Shown here: in pieces, positions 13,421 to 18,935 of the stretch | Position numbering within the stretch: the stretch's first letter is position 1 | Layout: each line of letters starts with the position of its first letter | From: a virus | UHGV virus genome: UHGV-0117651 | Reading direction: 5' to 3' (one strand) | Length of the DNA stretch: 22,213 bases | Position numbers and translations under genes: made by a program | The notes under the pieces: model-generated | The model's input: the letters and a program-made list of their open reading frames with translations, nothing else | The model's database searches: none | What the model was told of the DNA's origin: nothing

Positions 13421-13501
13421 ATATGCGTGCCTTTACAGAGGTGCGTGTAAGCAATAAAATATACGACGCACATTTTGATTTACTTCGGAAGGCACGCATA
13501 T
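13421..13501. repeat. 13-bp perfect inverted repeat ATATGCGTGCCTT / AAGGCACGCATAT with a 55-bp spacer
   Basis: Read directly from the sequence. It lies just upstream (in - strand terms) of the ribosome-binding site of the small ORF. The spacer holds a second imperfect dyad, GTGCGTG...ACGACGCAC. Confidence 0.45.
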
Positions 13502-13763: not shown

Positions 13764-14075
13764 TTACTCAGGAAATAACGCCCGGATATTCCCAGCCATC
13801 TGGCTGGTTATCTTAGCCACTGGTGCAGACTGTGCTTCAAACTTTTTTGAGCTGATTTGTGTCACAGGTAAAATCTCATCATCAGCCCATGCGGTCAGTC
13901 GGTAAGCCTCTGCCGGATTCGTCTTCAGAAGTGCCAGCCCGGCCAGAAAAGCCACGCGTTGGCCGCTTTTGCGGGCTTCTGGTGTAAGGCTGTCCAGCCA
14001 GGCGCATGCTTCTCCTTCGTTCTTGACGGCAGCTGGCTTCAGATAGAAACTTATTCTTCTGGTTGGTGTCGTCAT
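13764..14075 (-). CDS. parR: Plasmid partition adaptor ParR (StbB-like)
   Basis: 103-aa ORF immediately after parM with a 4-nt gap. Its N-terminal region (ISFYLKPA...LDSLTPEARKSGQRVAFLAGLALL) resembles R1 ParR as I recall it. Confidence 0.7.
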   Translation of the reverse strand: MTTPTRRISFYLKPAAVKNEGEACAWLDSLTPEARKSGQRVAFLAGLALLKTNPAEAYRLTAWADDEILPVTQISSKKFEAQSAPVAKITSQMAGNIRALFPE

Positions 14076-14079
14076 TGGT

Positions 14080-15039
14080 TTACTCCTTGTTCATTGCGTA
14101 CAGCCCATTAACCAGAGCAAACTGTGGCACCCCGTCCGCGATGAAAGTCGCATTAACTCCGCAGGCTTCGCGGATAGCGGGTGCCACAATCTCCGCCCCG
14201 CCACCGACAACCATCACCCGCCCGTAACCGGAAAAACCCGCCAGCGCGCGGATCACTCGTTGTTTCAGTGTCTCCTCCTTTTCACGAATAACCGCCATCA
14301 GGCTGTTGTAATGCGCGTCATTGTGAATGTGCTGGCGCAGCCAGGCTTCATCGTGACGGTGCTCAATAATGGTATTGGCGATGTGGTGACTGGTACGCAT
14401 ACCGTTAGTGGCCATCACCGACAGCACGGCATCAGCCATCAGGGAAACGCCTACGTGTGGATCGCAAAACACCTGGCTGATACCTGCCAGCTGCCCCTGA
14501 ACCTTTGCCACATCCAGCGTGGTTCCGCCCAAATCCACAATCAGCAGGGATTCAAACGGACTCATGTCAGCCAGTGCCTTAAAGCCAGCCGGAATGGATT
14601 CAGGCATAACCCGCACGTTACGGATAGTGAATGCTTCGCCGTTCTGGTACTCCACCGGGCGCATAACGTTCGCTTTTTTGCGGTTGATGTTGGCTATGTC
14701 CGGCTGTGCGTTTGTGTCGAAATACTCGCTCAGTGGCAGGGTGACAACCACATCCACCTCCTGTGGCGTGATGCCTGATTTGACCAGCGCGTGATGAATG
14801 GCAATGACATTCACATCACTGTACTGGTATTGCGTGTCGGTCGTCTGGACAAAGCGATCGCTGACCGGATCAAAACCATAGCGCACGCCATCAAGCATGT
14901 AGTTCGCGGGCTGCGTGCCACCGAACGGCGCAGACCATTCCGACTTGAAGCTGTTCGGGCTGATGGCGTTGCGGCGTTCGCCGTTCTCAGTCCATGCCAG
15001 CTTGATGTTGGTGGAGCCGTCGTCAATACAAATTTTCAT
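14080..15039 (-). CDS. parM: Actin-like plasmid segregation ATPase ParM (StbA)
   Basis: MKICIDDGSTNIKLAW, ISPNSFK, YSDVNVIAIHHAL, LLIVDLGGTTLDV, GFSGYGRVMVVGGGAEI and LVNGLYAM closely match the R1 ParM motifs as I recall them. AAGGA ribosome-binding site. Confidence 0.9.
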   Translation of the reverse strand: MKICIDDGSTNIKLAWTENGERRNAISPNSFKSEWSAPFGGTQPANYMLDGVRYGFDPVSDRFVQTTDTQYQYSDVNVIAIHHALVKSGITPQEVDVVVTLPLSEYFDTNAQPDIANINRKKANVMRPVEYQNGEAFTIRNVRVMPESIPAGFKALADMSPFESLLIVDLGGTTLDVAKVQGQLAGISQVFCDPHVGVSLMADAVLSVMATNGMRTSHHIANTIIEHRHDEAWLRQHIHNDAHYNSLMAVIREKEETLKQRVIRALAGFSGYGRVMVVGGGAEIVAPAIREACGVNATFIADGVPQFALVNGLYAMNKE

Positions 15040-15070
15040 GTCGCTTTTCCTTATGTTGATTAATTAATCG

Positions 15071-15181
15071 TTTACGGGATTCTGAAATCCCGTTTTTGCC
15101 TGTTTTGTGCGCGCTTCATATATCGCTGCGCGTTTTTTGCTCATTTACGGGATTCGTGAGTCCCGTTTCTGTCTGTTTTTT
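15071..15181. repeat. Two ~38-bp direct repeats, each with an internal dyad (TTTACGGGATTC-N-TCCCGTTT...CTGTTTT), spaced 73 bp apart: candidate parC-like centromere or operator, or + strand terminators
   Basis: Copy 1 at 15071-15108 and copy 2 at 15144-15181, read directly. A GATTAATTAATC palindrome lies at 15058-15069, next to the parM start. Copy 2 lies inside the last codons of the gpA ORF. Confidence 0.45.
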
Positions 15182-17938
15182 GTTTCCACTGGTCAGGCCA
15201 CCCCGCAGCAGGTCTGCTTTGCGGCTGGCGCGTTCAGTGGTTTCACTGATTCTCTGTGCGTGCTCTGCGTCGCGGATGGCGCGCAGCATGTCAGAAAGCA
15301 CGGTAACGGGAGTTTTCATGGTGTTCTGGTCCTGCTGAATTGTGGATGCCAGGCGTGCGGCGGCTTCGGGTTCTGATGCCCCGAGCTGCTCCAGATAGCT
15401 GGCGACCGGGTTATGGCGGATCTCCATGCTGCATACGCCGTGATTACGGCTCAGGCGCTGCCAGAGCTGCGTGATTCGGCTGTCCGGGCGGGTATCCGGT
15501 TTGCGTACAATTTCAAATCCCTGCGGTGCAATGATGCTGCCGTCAACGTACAGACTGCCGCCCCGTAACAGGTGCTGCATCTGTTGTTCACCGATATGCA
15601 GGCCGAGAGATTCAGCAGACTCCCGCCATTCTTTAGCGAGTAATTCGTGGTTATCAGGCAAAGGCCGCTGCTGTTTGCGGCTCTGTGTCCAGCTCTGCAT
15701 TTCATCACTGCTGTTTTTTGCCTGTTTGTCACGAAGCGAACGCATCAGCGCCCGGCGTTCGTGCCGTTTCAGTGAGCGCATCCATTCGTTCACTTCAACG
15801 CCGTCAGGAAGCTGCGGCCACGGTGCTGGCCGTTCTTCCGACTGTTCTGTCCCGCTGTTGCCTGTTTCCTGTACACGGGGACAGTTATTGCCACGAGTCC
15901 AAGGGGCGGCAGGGCCGCCCTGAAGGTCAAAACCATTTTCGCGGGCGCTGTCTTCCGCTTCCGGTTTGCGTCTTACCAGCTTCCAGTTATCCGGATGCGT
16001 GCATACGCGGGAAGACTCCCCAATGAGCGGCGACCAGATCCCGTAAATCTGTACGCTCTGTTCACCGTAATCGTTCAGCTCATCTGCGAGGTCGTAGGCG
16101 GTGCGAATCAGGTAGTCTTTGCGTGGAACAAGTACGCCACCCTGTTTCTCAATGTAGGTGGCAAAACATCCGGCATCAGCGGCAGCGAGTACCGCGTCCA
16201 TTGCGTCATCCTTCAGCCGTTGCGGGCCTTCCGGGTTGCGTGCCATCTGGCTGGCAAGGCGGCGCAGTTCACGCCACACCTGACGGGAGGGGATACCAAA
16301 GAACTGGAACTGGCGGACCCGGTGAAGGCGCGCCCAGCCGATGGCGCGTTCCACGCTCTCGGCCATTGATTTTCCGGTTTCGTGGTCAACGCGTGGCTTG
16401 CCCGTTTTCGGGTCGATGCCATCCACGGCGCGGCTGTCCAGGTTTTTTCCGATGTAGGTCGCGATATAGCTGGTTGGTGTGCCTTTTGAGCCGTCGACAT
16501 ACTCCACCTTAAAGCGCGGAGTAATATCATTGCCCAGCTCGTGGCGGTCTTCCTGAATGGCAATATCGCGGGTGATGGCCACGATGCTGTCGATTTCTTC
16601 CGGATGAGCAAAGACCATCATATGCCAGTGCACGGTGCCGTCATGGTGAGGCTCCACCGTGCGGATGCCATACCAGCGCAGACCGTCGCGGTTCAGTTTT
16701 TTGCGGACTGCCGCAAAAAACGTGTTAACCAGGTAATCGCTGGAGTCGCGCATGGTGGCCCCGTTCCATTTGGGGTTCGGATGACCGTTCTCCGTTGTTG
16801 CGTGGTATTTTGACGGGCAGGTGACAGTCAGAAACACCGCTCTGTCGCCACGGGCTTCGGCCAGAAGTTCCAGTCCCTTCATGGTGGCCATCATTTCTGC
16901 CTTACGGTGAACCGGGTTACTTACTCCCGCGTAATACACCGTCTCGAGATCAATCGTGAACCCGTCTTCATTTTCTAGCATGAAACTTTTCAGGAAATCG
17001 CGTGTTTTCTCGCGCTGTGCGCGAAACTCGCTTAACGCGTCCTGGCTCAGATAGGGTGATGTTTTTCTGGAAACCAGACAGGCGGCGCGGAGTTGTTCTT
17101 CTCTCCACTCGCAACGTAACAGCCACAGTTTGCGTTTCCACCATTCCGCACAGGTCAGGCGAAGGATTGCGCCCGGCAGCAGCTCCGTGTCTGGTTCGTT
17201 CCTCCGGTCTTTGTCTGTTGTCAGTGCGTCATAATGTGGAGGCATGGCGTGCAGGTGTAACGCCATGCGGGCCAGCATCTGATACGCCTTCAGCGTTACA
17301 TCCATGGTCAGCTCGCCATCGGTCGCGCCAAAGCCATCGCAGAGTTTTTCGAAGGTGCTGCTGAACATCGCCGCCGTCATGGTGGCCAGCGTCTGTATCT
17401 GGTGTTTGTTGAGCTGCGGCAGGTAAAGCAAATCGTCCAGGCGTTCGCGTCCGGCAAGGGAGCGATAACCCGGTGTCAGCCAGTGTCCGTCAGTGCGATC
17501 CAGACGTTCGAATATTTTGCGCAGGGTTCCGCGTGCATAGCGTTCCGCCTGCCAGCTCTTTTTGCCTTTCCGGCGATCGGCTTCCTGTTTTTTGCGCAGG
17601 AAGGAGAGGTGGCGAATAAGCGGATCGCGCAGATAGGACGGCAGCAGGTGCAGCGAGGCCATGGCTTCATCCACCGCGCCTCGTGCCTGTTTTCTGGCGT
17701 CTCCTGCCAGTGTGATGGTTTTGTCCTGTTTTTCCTGTGCGTCCAGGCTTTTATTAATCAGGTTGCCCAGCGGCGTGGCGGAGAACGCCGCATCAGCCAT
17801 TTCCTGGCGGCGTTCGTTCTCTGCCCGGTAGGCATCCAGCCAGGAGGAAAGCGCGGATTCAGGAGCGGGGATCCCCGTTCCTTCACGCCCCACGGCGTGG
17901 CGCGGTTGTTGCCAGTCCCTGATGTACTCTGCCGTCAT
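15116..17938 (-). CDS. A: Rolling-circle replication initiator or endonuclease (P2 gpA family)
   Basis: 940-aa ORF with an H-x-H metal-binding motif (HWHMMVF) and a Tyr-containing motif (YIATYIGKN), characteristic of gpA-type initiators. It is the last large gene of the early operon. The ORF is longer than gpA as I recall it, with an extended C-terminus. Confidence 0.8.
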   Translation of the reverse strand: MTAEYIRDWQQPRHAVGREGTGIPAPESALSSWLDAYRAENERRQEMADAAFSATPLGNLINKSLDAQEKQDKTITLAGDARKQARGAVDEAMASLHLLPSYLRDPLIRHLSFLRKKQEADRRKGKKSWQAERYARGTLRKIFERLDRTDGHWLTPGYRSLAGRERLDDLLYLPQLNKHQIQTLATMTAAMFSSTFEKLCDGFGATDGELTMDVTLKAYQMLARMALHLHAMPPHYDALTTDKDRRNEPDTELLPGAILRLTCAEWWKRKLWLLRCEWREEQLRAACLVSRKTSPYLSQDALSEFRAQREKTRDFLKSFMLENEDGFTIDLETVYYAGVSNPVHRKAEMMATMKGLELLAEARGDRAVFLTVTCPSKYHATTENGHPNPKWNGATMRDSSDYLVNTFFAAVRKKLNRDGLRWYGIRTVEPHHDGTVHWHMMVFAHPEEIDSIVAITRDIAIQEDRHELGNDITPRFKVEYVDGSKGTPTSYIATYIGKNLDSRAVDGIDPKTGKPRVDHETGKSMAESVERAIGWARLHRVRQFQFFGIPSRQVWRELRRLASQMARNPEGPQRLKDDAMDAVLAAADAGCFATYIEKQGGVLVPRKDYLIRTAYDLADELNDYGEQSVQIYGIWSPLIGESSRVCTHPDNWKLVRRKPEAEDSARENGFDLQGGPAAPWTRGNNCPRVQETGNSGTEQSEERPAPWPQLPDGVEVNEWMRSLKRHERRALMRSLRDKQAKNSSDEMQSWTQSRKQQRPLPDNHELLAKEWRESAESLGLHIGEQQMQHLLRGGSLYVDGSIIAPQGFEIVRKPDTRPDSRITQLWQRLSRNHGVCSMEIRHNPVASYLEQLGASEPEAAARLASTIQQDQNTMKTPVTVLSDMLRAIRDAEHAQRISETTERASRKADLLRGGLTSGNKKQTETGLTNPVNEQKTRSDI

Positions 17939-17944
17939 AGTGAT

Positions 17945-18310
17945 TTACTTCGTCATGCCATTCAGGGTGTCGCGGCAGACGGTAGCCAGCCGCTGAATTT
18001 CCAGCACGGTGTCTTCTGTGTCGGCATGGCGATGTGTGATGCGGATGCTGTCGGCAATCACATCGACGATTGCAGAGGATGGGCGCTGGTAAATGCCAAT
18101 AACGGACGGGGTGCCACCTTCAATGCGGTAAAGCCTGTAATTTCCCTCGTGGCTGTCGATCATGTAGCGACCATCAATAACAATTTTTCCGTCAGCGAGT
18201 TGCGGTACAGGCAGGGATTTCAGGTACATGTCATAACGATCACGCACGCGAGCGGCAAGATCACGTTCTGTGTTGAGCAGGTATTCAAGAAAGTCGTTGG
18301 CGAGAATCAT
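17945..18310 (-). CDS. Hypothetical early-operon protein (121 aa), coupled to gpA
   Basis: ORF ending 7 nt before the gpA start. No family recognised. Confidence 0.5.
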   Translation of the reverse strand: MILANDFLEYLLNTERDLAARVRDRYDMYLKSLPVPQLADGKIVIDGRYMIDSHEGNYRLYRIEGGTPSVIGIYQRPSSAIVDVIADSIRITHRHADTEDTVLEIQRLATVCRDTLNGMTK

Positions 18311-18382
18311 TGCGGCAATCCTCTTGTTACAGATGTGCGAAGGCCTCCCGCCGCAAGGTGCAGGAAAGGCCCGGAACAGGAA

Positions 18383-18613
18383 TTAATGGTGTTTGTTTTG
18401 CTGCTGGATGAGCTGTTGAAGCTCGTGCAGATCATTCGCCAGATAGCTGTAAACAGAGGCGGAATAAATGTTTGATAGTGCGTGGCTGCGCTCATGCAGC
18501 ATATTGATGTGCATGATTTGCGCGACGCGTGATGCGCGGGAAAGTCTGCGGTTGATTTCAGTCTGGATGTGACGACGCTCCGCGATAGCGCGGTGTGGTT
18601 TGCGGTTTGCCAT
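18383..18613 (-). CDS. Hypothetical early-operon protein (76 aa, basic)
   Basis: ORF with AAGGGG upstream of the ATG. It is preceded by the structured 320-bp leader. Confidence 0.45.
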   Translation of the reverse strand: MANRKPHRAIAERRHIQTEINRRLSRASRVAQIMHINMLHERSHALSNIYSASVYSYLANDLHELQQLIQQQNKHH

Positions 18614-18935
18614 GGTGTGGCCCCTTGTGTAGTAAGTTGTGAAAACTCACCATCCAGAGCTGCGAAACTGTGGGTGGCGAGACGTACGAGGTTCGCAGTA
18701 CCGGCTACACAAGAACCCGGCCCGACCGAAGTCGGCCCCGTACGCCCCGCCATAATTCTGACGCGAAAAAAACGTGGCAATACAGTACGCACAAAAAAAC
18801 CGCTGGCGCGGTTGTGCGCTTGTGTAGTCAGCAGGCTGCGAAACCCGACACCCGTTTTGTGAGGTGCAGCGGAAATGTAACCTGACTGATTGCGACATGG
18901 CAAGCGGTTTTTTTGTGTGTGCATGTTCTGGTTTC
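18614..18935 (-). promoter_or_regulatory. Structured noncoding leader inside the early operon, with three copies of a bipartite motif (CTTGTGTAG + GCTGCGAA); the middle copy is inverted
   Basis: Copy 1 at 18623-18661 (direct), copy 2 at 18690-18714 (inverted, GGTTCGCAG...GCTACACAAG) and copy 3 at 18819-18844 (direct). A GC-rich hairpin lies at 18716-18740. Copy 1 overlaps the ribosome-binding site of the 76-aa ORF. Confidence 0.45.

Follow-up and report, generated by a model that had tools for sequence, protein, structure and literature searches.

Two phased dyad repeats upstream of parM-parR in a P88-like phage as a putative ParR-binding site

What is the role of the two dyad-bearing repeats that lie between the replication endonuclease gene gpA and the partition genes parM and parR in the virus genome UHGV-0117651? 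Plasmid segregation by ParMRC is a textbook system, in which the centromere is described as an array of iterons with the operon promoter inside. The stretch analyzed here (22,213 nt, in the following referred to as the window) represents a P2-type phage or prophage, being P88-like and belonging to the genus Xuanwuvirus within the Peduoviridae, with gpA, parM, and parR following each other in this order on the minus strand. Based on comparative sequence evidence, we consider it probable that the two repeats form a cis-acting ParR-binding site, i.e., the parC-equivalent centromere and operator of a prophage type II ParM/ParR module. Literature searches retrieved no description of a cis site of the P88 type.

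A repeat search revealed one direct-repeat family, consisting of two 42-nt copies at 15068-15109 and 15141-15182 that are 81% identical with a start-to-start distance of 73 bp, thereby confirming the pair of dyad repeats described in the initial annotation. Each copy contains a 20-bp dyad of the form ACGGGATT-N4-AATCCCGT with a stem of 8 bp, represented by ACGGGATTCTGAAATCCCGT at 15074-15093 and ACGGGATTCGTGAGTCCCGT at 15147-15166. Allowing up to two mismatches, the dyad pattern was found only at these two sites in the window, a count reached by none of 100 shuffled sequences, and it likewise occurs only twice in a complete 34.5-kb relative. Together, the repeats span -143 to -32 relative to the parM ATG. 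The proximal repeat (copy 1; core GGG at 15076-15078, CCC at 15089-15091) is intergenic, with its sense-strand GGG at -52 from the parM ATG. The distal repeat (copy 2; core GGG at 15149-15151, CCC at 15162-15164) carries an A-tract flank and lies within the last 22 codons of gpA, the TGA stop of which is located at 15116-15118; its annotated position inside the gpA C-terminus was therefore correct. Between the two, a spacer (15110-15140) hosts the gpA stop codon and a variable core, CGCGCAGCGATATATGAAGCGCGC, and is kept in length but not in sequence. The A-tracts in the window are phased at 10.5 bp (1 of 5,000 shuffles). A palindrome noted beside the parM ribosome-binding site, GATTAATTAATC, is indeed present at 15058-15069, but its conservation across lineages is limited to an ATTAAT(C)AA core; it may represent a -10-like or other protein-binding element adjoining the ribosome-binding site.

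Judged by the points where homology begins and ends, the repeats belong to the parMR cassette and not to gpA. Most of the ~90 related loci match the window precisely as far as the parR stop (13764), beyond which variable cargo follows. On the opposite side, an IMG/VR locus (L054) and E. coli O169:H41 (L223) carry a shorter gpA and then an unrelated open reading frame (ORF) of 155 aa ahead of the cassette, with the match to the window setting in at 15180, where the distal repeat has its left edge. Since homology starts at this edge, the 155-aa ORF shares a 21-residue tail with the window gpA (KQTxTGxTNPVNEQKTRSDI). The same boundary, 15180-15184, is a homology breakpoint in these two loci and a conservation step in a Hafnia locus (L094, parM DNA 88% identical), in which identity to the window amounts to 55% in the gpA 3' end and steps up to 74% in the repeat region. 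Here, gpA stops inside the distal dyad (ending in KQKRDS), and both dyads as well as the 73-bp spacing are kept despite the changed gpA tail. E. coli FY10 (L222) combines a closely related gpA with an AAA ATPase and an S8 peptidase and has no parMR; this locus is devoid of the repeats, shows a different gpA tail, and loses homology to the window at ~15228. The contrast is drawn from E. coli genomes rather than from phage records, as all 14 phage records with a full gpA C-terminus carry parMR and none with gpA but without parMR was found among them. Scanning IMG/VR for the dyad motif returned 119 loci, and parM is present within 260 nt in every one of the 115 that are not cut by a contig end. 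From the homology bounds at the parR stop and at the edge of copy 2, the conserved cassette comprises 13764-15180, with the repeat region as its only non-coding part, and the last ~21 aa of gpA, encoded by the distal repeat, are incidental.

Next to this exclusive linkage, the pattern of conservation within the repeats is informative. Close relatives were represented by 210 loci, corresponding to 103 distinct sequences, with a dyad-to-dyad distance, given for 102 of them, of 73 bp in 97, 72 bp in four, and 74 bp in one. The central G-C pairs are invariant throughout, and those pairs that do vary are changed on one side only, leading to a wobble on the sense RNA, a wobble on the antisense RNA, or a plain mismatch; the number of compensatory pair changes in the 103 distinct sequences was zero. 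As this set is >94% identical, per-column conservation within it is of little power. More distant loci from Plesiomonas, a second Hafnia lineage, Serratia, and Enterobacter encode ParMs of 54-63% identity and occupy the same P2-like prophage slot between gpA and portal gene. A pattern of GGG-N10-CCC is found exactly twice upstream of parM in each of four lineages, namely at -125/-52 from the parM ATG in the P88 type of the window (spacing 73), at -124/-51 in Hafnia L094 (73), at -131/-59 in Plesiomonas L224 (ParM 63% identical; 72), and at -128/-55 in the second Hafnia lineage, L225 (ParM 62% identical; 73). It occurs three times in total in the 22-kb window and not at all in the parC regions of R1, IncL/M, and IncI plasmids. 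The comparison with homologous parMR loci that the initial annotation had called for thus revealed a GGG/CCC pair kept at 72-73 bp in lineages with ParMs of only 62-63% identity.

What is not kept over this distance is the hairpin. The ten inner bases are palindromic in the P88 type only, those of Plesiomonas being ACAACAAAAA and ACAACACTAA, and the elements of Plesiomonas and Hafnia L225 fold to mere 3-4-bp stems with 10-nt loops. Three of their four antisense folds fall within ~1.3 standard deviations of shuffled controls; the fourth, belonging to the proximal Plesiomonas copy, is stabilized by flanking GC-rich arms. None of the four elements is followed by a U-tail. Within an alignment of the four lineages, invariant columns concentrate on GGGA, CCC, and ATTAAT. 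What is retained is the inverted arrangement of half-sites, present as two pairs, together with the helical phase between them (73 bp equaling seven turns). This combination, kept without the hairpin, marks a protein-binding architecture, and the hairpin or terminator look of the P88 type results incidentally from a more perfect dyad beside A/T-tracts. The 38-bp dyad repeat unit originally delineated therefore needs revision: its dyads are real, but the conserved unit is the GGG/CCC half-site pair and not a hairpin plus tail.

The obvious candidate for the binding protein is ParR, because of its homology to the ParRs of R1 and pB171 and because of a strand and a tail that it has in common with IncL/M and IncI ParRs. 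The encoding gene (13764-14075, minus strand) specifies a putative centromere-binding protein and adaptor of 103 aa (Pfam PF10784, 1.4e-23), with 33% identity to R1 ParR in the N-terminal 60 aa, and the best PDB match of its family profile is the ribbon-helix-helix protein pB171 ParR (2jd3, E=0.0044). Shared with the IncL/M and IncI proteins are an N-terminal R(R/K)xSFY(L/I)xP strand and a C-terminal N(I/V)xxLFP(E/D) tail. Among 24 ParR alleles ranging from 98% to 43% identity, the stretch R6-P14 (RRISFYLKP) and the C-terminal NIxxxFP tail are invariant and divergence is confined to a hypervariable middle part (residues ~62-95). Regarding co-variation of protein and DNA, the presumed DNA-reading strand thereby parallels the dyad cores, both being invariant across the 24 alleles. 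One allele (L087) resembles a recombinant of two allele types. A tblastn search of plasmids with ParR matched P88-like inserts only. The adjacent parM (14080-15039, minus strand) encodes an actin-like segregation ATPase of 319 aa (Pfam StbA_N, 3.5e-82; ParM C-terminal domain, 1.4e-68) that matches the R1 ParM structure 1mwk with E=8.6e-93 and is 92-99% identical among P88-type relatives (94-99% for aligned full-length ParMs). It begins at 15039, 76 nt downstream of the gpA stop, is preceded by a Shine-Dalgarno sequence (AAGGAAAA, 15045-15052, minus strand) that was read directly and is kept in relatives, and is separated from parR by a gap of 4 nt. A site upstream of parM-parR, an actin-like ParM, and a ParR with homology to known adaptors are all found here, as in type II loci.

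From these data, we infer a mode of action comprising ParR binding, its stoichiometry, read-through transcription, and a biological role. Each 20-bp dyad would consist of the inverted half-sites CGGGA and TCCCG, with GGG and CCC being 13 bp apart centre to centre, and ribbon-helix-helix ParR dimers would recognize these half-sites through RRISFYLKP, their invariant N-terminal beta-strand. At a distance of seven helical turns, both dyads would be exposed on the same face of the DNA. By analogy with the pSK41 and pB171 complexes, each dyad may take two ParR dimers, and bound ParR may bridge or wrap the ~60-bp spacer into one compact complex, from which the C-terminal ParR tail NIRALFPE would capture the ends of ParM filaments. 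Transcription of parMR would take place by read-through when the phage genome is extrachromosomal, and the ParR-DNA complex would then segregate or position the circular phage DNA.

Like the phage site, parC of R1/NR1, the type II prototype, is located directly upstream of parM-parR, is split into two blocks around a spacer, and shows an A-rich sense strand with A-tracts phased at ~10.5 bp; unlike R1 parC, the phage distal block lies inside the upstream gene. The closest plasmid ParMs (~52% identity to phage ParM) are found in IncL/M (pOXA-48/pCTX-M3-like) and IncI1/B/O plasmids. The upstream region of the IncL/M locus (L090) hosts two repeat blocks 73 bp apart, as in the phage, but the blocks of the IncL/M and IncI (L088) loci are T-rich 10-11-bp iterons instead of dyads, and the respective ParRs comprise 140-147 aa compared with 103 aa. 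Type II centromeres are built from four to ten tandem direct repeats of 10-11 or 20 bp, which either form one continuous array or are divided into two blocks, and in the pSK41 and pB171 segrosomes ribbon-helix-helix ParR occupies sub-sites of ~10 bp with 20-bp units holding pairs of dimers (PMC5016525). In a like manner, a ParR dimer of dimers might fit on the 20-bp phage dyad, although those centromeres are direct-repeat arrays forming a long superhelix and the phage site offers only two dyad units.

Two precedents are known from normally integrated elements. The SXT/R391 family of integrative conjugative elements (ICEs) carries a type II-like module, srpMRC, which stabilizes a plasmid (PMC4489591); its SrpR has no homology to known ParRs according to the authors (PMC4489591), whereas phage ParR is a member of PF10784. 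In the Corynebacterium prophage CGP3, the adaptor AlpA binds alpS repeats upstream of its own operon and, together with the actin-like AlpC, is expressed early after induction and links circular phage DNA to filaments (PMC4446434). Here, alpS consists of 24 short TTAAnnG repeats as opposed to two phage dyads, the CGP3 proteins are distant members of the Alp family, and the role demonstrated for them is efficient replication and not partition. In view of the SXT/R391 and CGP3 precedents, a role of the phage module on the excised circle is plausible.

Several observations weigh against the assignment as a parC equivalent. A tandem iteron array and an embedded par promoter under repression by ParR, both typical of type II parC, were not found. 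The R1-type locus (L089) contains two sets of five direct 11-bp iterons (AAACCCAAAAAC-like) where the phage has two 20-bp dyads, a difference in architecture already recognized in the initial annotation, and the repeat search returned no iteron family but only two dyad-bearing repeats, though these are split in two blocks. The IncL/M blocks flank a clear TTTACA-17-AATAAT promoter, and hexamers (TTGACT and TAAACT, read by eye and not scanned) are located between the iteron blocks of the R1-type locus. The same consensus scan that picks up the IncL/M site detected no sigma-70-like promoter within or between the repeats of the window or of Hafnia L094, bearing in mind that a weak or activator-dependent promoter may escape it. 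Two pairs of weak hexamers picked by hand (TGAGCA-15-TATATG and TTCAGA-16-ATTAAT) were judged unconvincing. Of the earlier proposal that parC and a promoter reside between gpA and parM, the first part thus gained comparative support through linkage to parMR with cores and spacing kept, whereas the promoter was found neither in the E. coli nor in the Hafnia version. A sense-strand terminator after gpA was not found either; given the lack of both signals, transcription of the early replication operon probably continues into parMR. Furthermore, A-tract phasing is weaker and not clearly significant in Hafnia, and not all members of the clade show the two-dyad design: Serratia and Enterobacter loci (ParM 54-58% identical) show one inverted repeat with arms of 14-20 nt and a spacer of 26-28 nt, containing GGGAAC and GTTCCC, and the N-terminus of their ParR differs slightly (NRKISFYL vs. 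TRR(I/V)SFYL). On the protein side, an AlphaFold2 model of the ParR monomer reached a mean predicted local distance difference test score of 57 with a disordered N-terminal strand, so that the ribbon-helix-helix fold is assigned by homology only. Finally, 1,530 of the 1,532 places of the region in complete E. coli genomes are chromosomal, and with this distribution a need for partition is not obvious.

Considering the hairpin look of the P88 type, two RNA-based explanations have to be weighed. The dyads could be tandem intrinsic terminators for plus strand (antisense) transcription, insulating gpA and the early operon from transcripts of the cargo or late region that run back through parR and parM. 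Both copies indeed score as terminator-like on the plus strand, as annotated, with an 8-bp stem, a 4-nt loop, a T-rich tail, and hairpin energies of ~-10 to -12.7 kcal/mol; this fit is restricted to that strand, the sense-strand stems being followed by AAAT and AAAC without a T-run. The look is kept in Hafnia L094, and a plus strand promoter-like site at 13432-13460 points toward the repeats. Nevertheless, we regard this explanation as improbable: no plus strand gene ends here, as had been noted at the outset, and the plus strand is antisense to parM; Plesiomonas and Hafnia L225 retain motif and spacing but lose stem and U-run; the one-sided stem changes break pairing on either strand without any compensation; a terminator needs neither an exact 73-bp phasing nor conserved flanks beyond stem and tail; and the gpA followed by other cargo in E. 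coli FY10 has no such hairpins. Alternatively, the dyads might act as stem-loops in a sense gpA-parM mRNA, either processing or stabilizing it or coupling or limiting gpA-parM translation. The sense strand folds the same stems (-9 to -11.4 kcal/mol, z ~-2), and their position where gpA and parM meet, on a transcript that is probably polycistronic as no sense-strand terminator is seen, would suit such a function. This possibility is very improbable considering that no Rfam family matches at the repeats (region and whole window searched), that covariation is missing and common alleles, including copy 2 of the window (ACGGGACT...), give C-A mismatches in the sense RNA, and that the hairpin potential disappears in Plesiomonas and Hafnia L225 while motif and spacing stay.

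Protein binding in turn leaves the question of which protein and to which end. The replication origins of phages P2 and 186 are located within gene A. With copy 2 residing inside gene A and with dyads in place of the direct iterons typical of R1 ParR sites, the repeats could be part of a gpA rolling-circle origin or be bound by another phage or host regulator, their adjacency to parM being incidental. We give this only a slight chance, as the repeats follow parMR, being present behind the non-gpA ORF of L054 and L223 and absent from L222 with its gpA and without parMR; the gpA lengths in the four motif lineages vary widely (940, 913, 789, and 835 aa), and the motif appears nowhere else in the whole phage genome. 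A stronger contender, albeit rather unlikely, is that ParR does bind here but not for partition, the site being mainly an operator or helping to place or move the induced phage DNA for its replication, like AlpA/AlpC/alpS of CGP3. Such a role would agree with nearly all copies being integrated, with parMR residing in an early replication operon without a promoter of its own, and with the requirement of the CGP3 actin-like protein and its repeat-binding adaptor for efficient viral DNA replication (PMC4446434). It fits less well with a ParM that is a close R1-type ParM, with a ParR tail common to bona fide plasmid ParRs of IncL/M and IncI, with a whole P88-like phage recorded as a circular 34.5-kb 'plasmid', and with the stabilization of a plasmid by srpMRC of the integrative SXT/R391 element (PMC4489591).

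Taken as a ParR-binding centromere and operator, the phage site would depart from the textbook picture in four ways, i.e., by two dyads seven turns apart, by the lack of a recognizable promoter, by the overlap with the upstream gene, and by its occurrence in a clade of integrating P2-like phages. If ParR binds, mechanistic studies would gain a type II centromere that is very small and simple to mutate, as well as a handle on why temperate integrating phages retain a partition module, and the site would add a third actin-like DNA-moving system of integrative elements to srpMRC of SXT/R391 and AlpAC of CGP3. A further-reaching scenario is possible, though we hold it with considerable doubt. Herein, a minimal two-dyad centromere, lying partly in the 3' end of a replication gene, would allow an integrating phage to use plasmid-type ParMR on the excised or not-yet-integrated circle, expressed only with the early replication operon; the phage carried by a quarter of E. 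coli strains could then be transiently similar to a low-copy plasmid (a carrier or pseudolysogenic state), and the ParR-DNA complex might also gate read-through from gpA.

The repeat region is widespread, being present in 1,370 of 5,426 complete E. coli genomes including EDL933 (O157:H7), O26:H11 11368, and ST131 strains. Around the repeats, a 2-kb segment shares 94-97% identity with, among others, the Escherichia phages 520873, 503458, and P88 and the Citrobacter phage Shae_phiSM. The circular record NZ_CP148288.1 (L092; 34,461 bp) was filed under E. coli plasmids but contains a complete genome of a P88-like phage, in which integrase, cox, gpA, parMR, and the full set of structural genes are present. 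It represents either a phage existing outside the chromosome or an excised circle that was captured by assembly. Scanning genome contigs for ParM returned only three loci (E. albertii, Salmonella, and a 'Vagococcus' contig). The latter, NZ_JBQPOM010000071.1 (L102) from the Gram-positive assembly 'Vagococcus sp. WN89Y', encodes a ParM sharing 97% identity with that of the E. coli phage and is most likely an enterobacterial contamination of this assembly.

Upstream of the cassette, gpA (15116-17938, minus strand) encodes a replication endonuclease of 940 aa (Pfam Phage_GPA, 1.7e-130); at the other end, parR is followed by the variable cargo region, past which the portal and terminase genes are located. 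Further toward the early region, matches at Rfam gathering level were obtained for C4 antisense RNA (RF01695, 83 bits; 18670-18757, minus strand) and the Hfq-binding RNA isrK (RF01394, 62 bits; 18793-18867, minus strand), both inside or overlapping an Ash-family ORF of 205 aa (18307-18924). These matches point to an antisense immunity module of the c4 type, resembling that of P1/P7, within the early region of the phage.

The AAA-family ATPase and S8 peptidase in the slot after gpA on the E. coli FY10 chromosome (L222, 3659-7103) suggest that defence-type cargo was swapped in at the hotspot that holds parMR elsewhere. In the IMG/VR locus IMGVR_UViG_2874920711_000009 (L127, 440-900), ~2.7 kb of foreign plus strand ORFs replace the gpA 3' end and the distal repeat, and homology is regained immediately upstream of the proximal dyad. 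Here, parM is an ORF of only 110 aa and is probably decaying. In the second Hafnia lineage (L225, 3453-3956), a 167-aa ORF between gpA and parM crosses both GGG-N10-CCC elements and ends 44 nt before parM; more than one lineage has an ORF upstream of parM that extends into the par cis site. Three loci of a ParR allele group with 53% identity (L097/L098/L099, 4309-4437) carry a 42-aa ORF after parR with a weak StbA_N match, which suggests a remnant of a second parM or a recombination scar. Within the cargo region of the window, the AT-rich segment 13400-13760 was considered as an alternative centromere and rejected, as most relatives lose homology at the parR stop and continue into variable cargo. 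This segment, common to only ~8 relatives, hosts promoter-like sites on the plus (13432-13460) and minus strand (13635-13608) as well as perfect inverted repeats at 13421-13433/13489-13501, 13529-13540/13547-13558, and 13579-13589/13633-13643.

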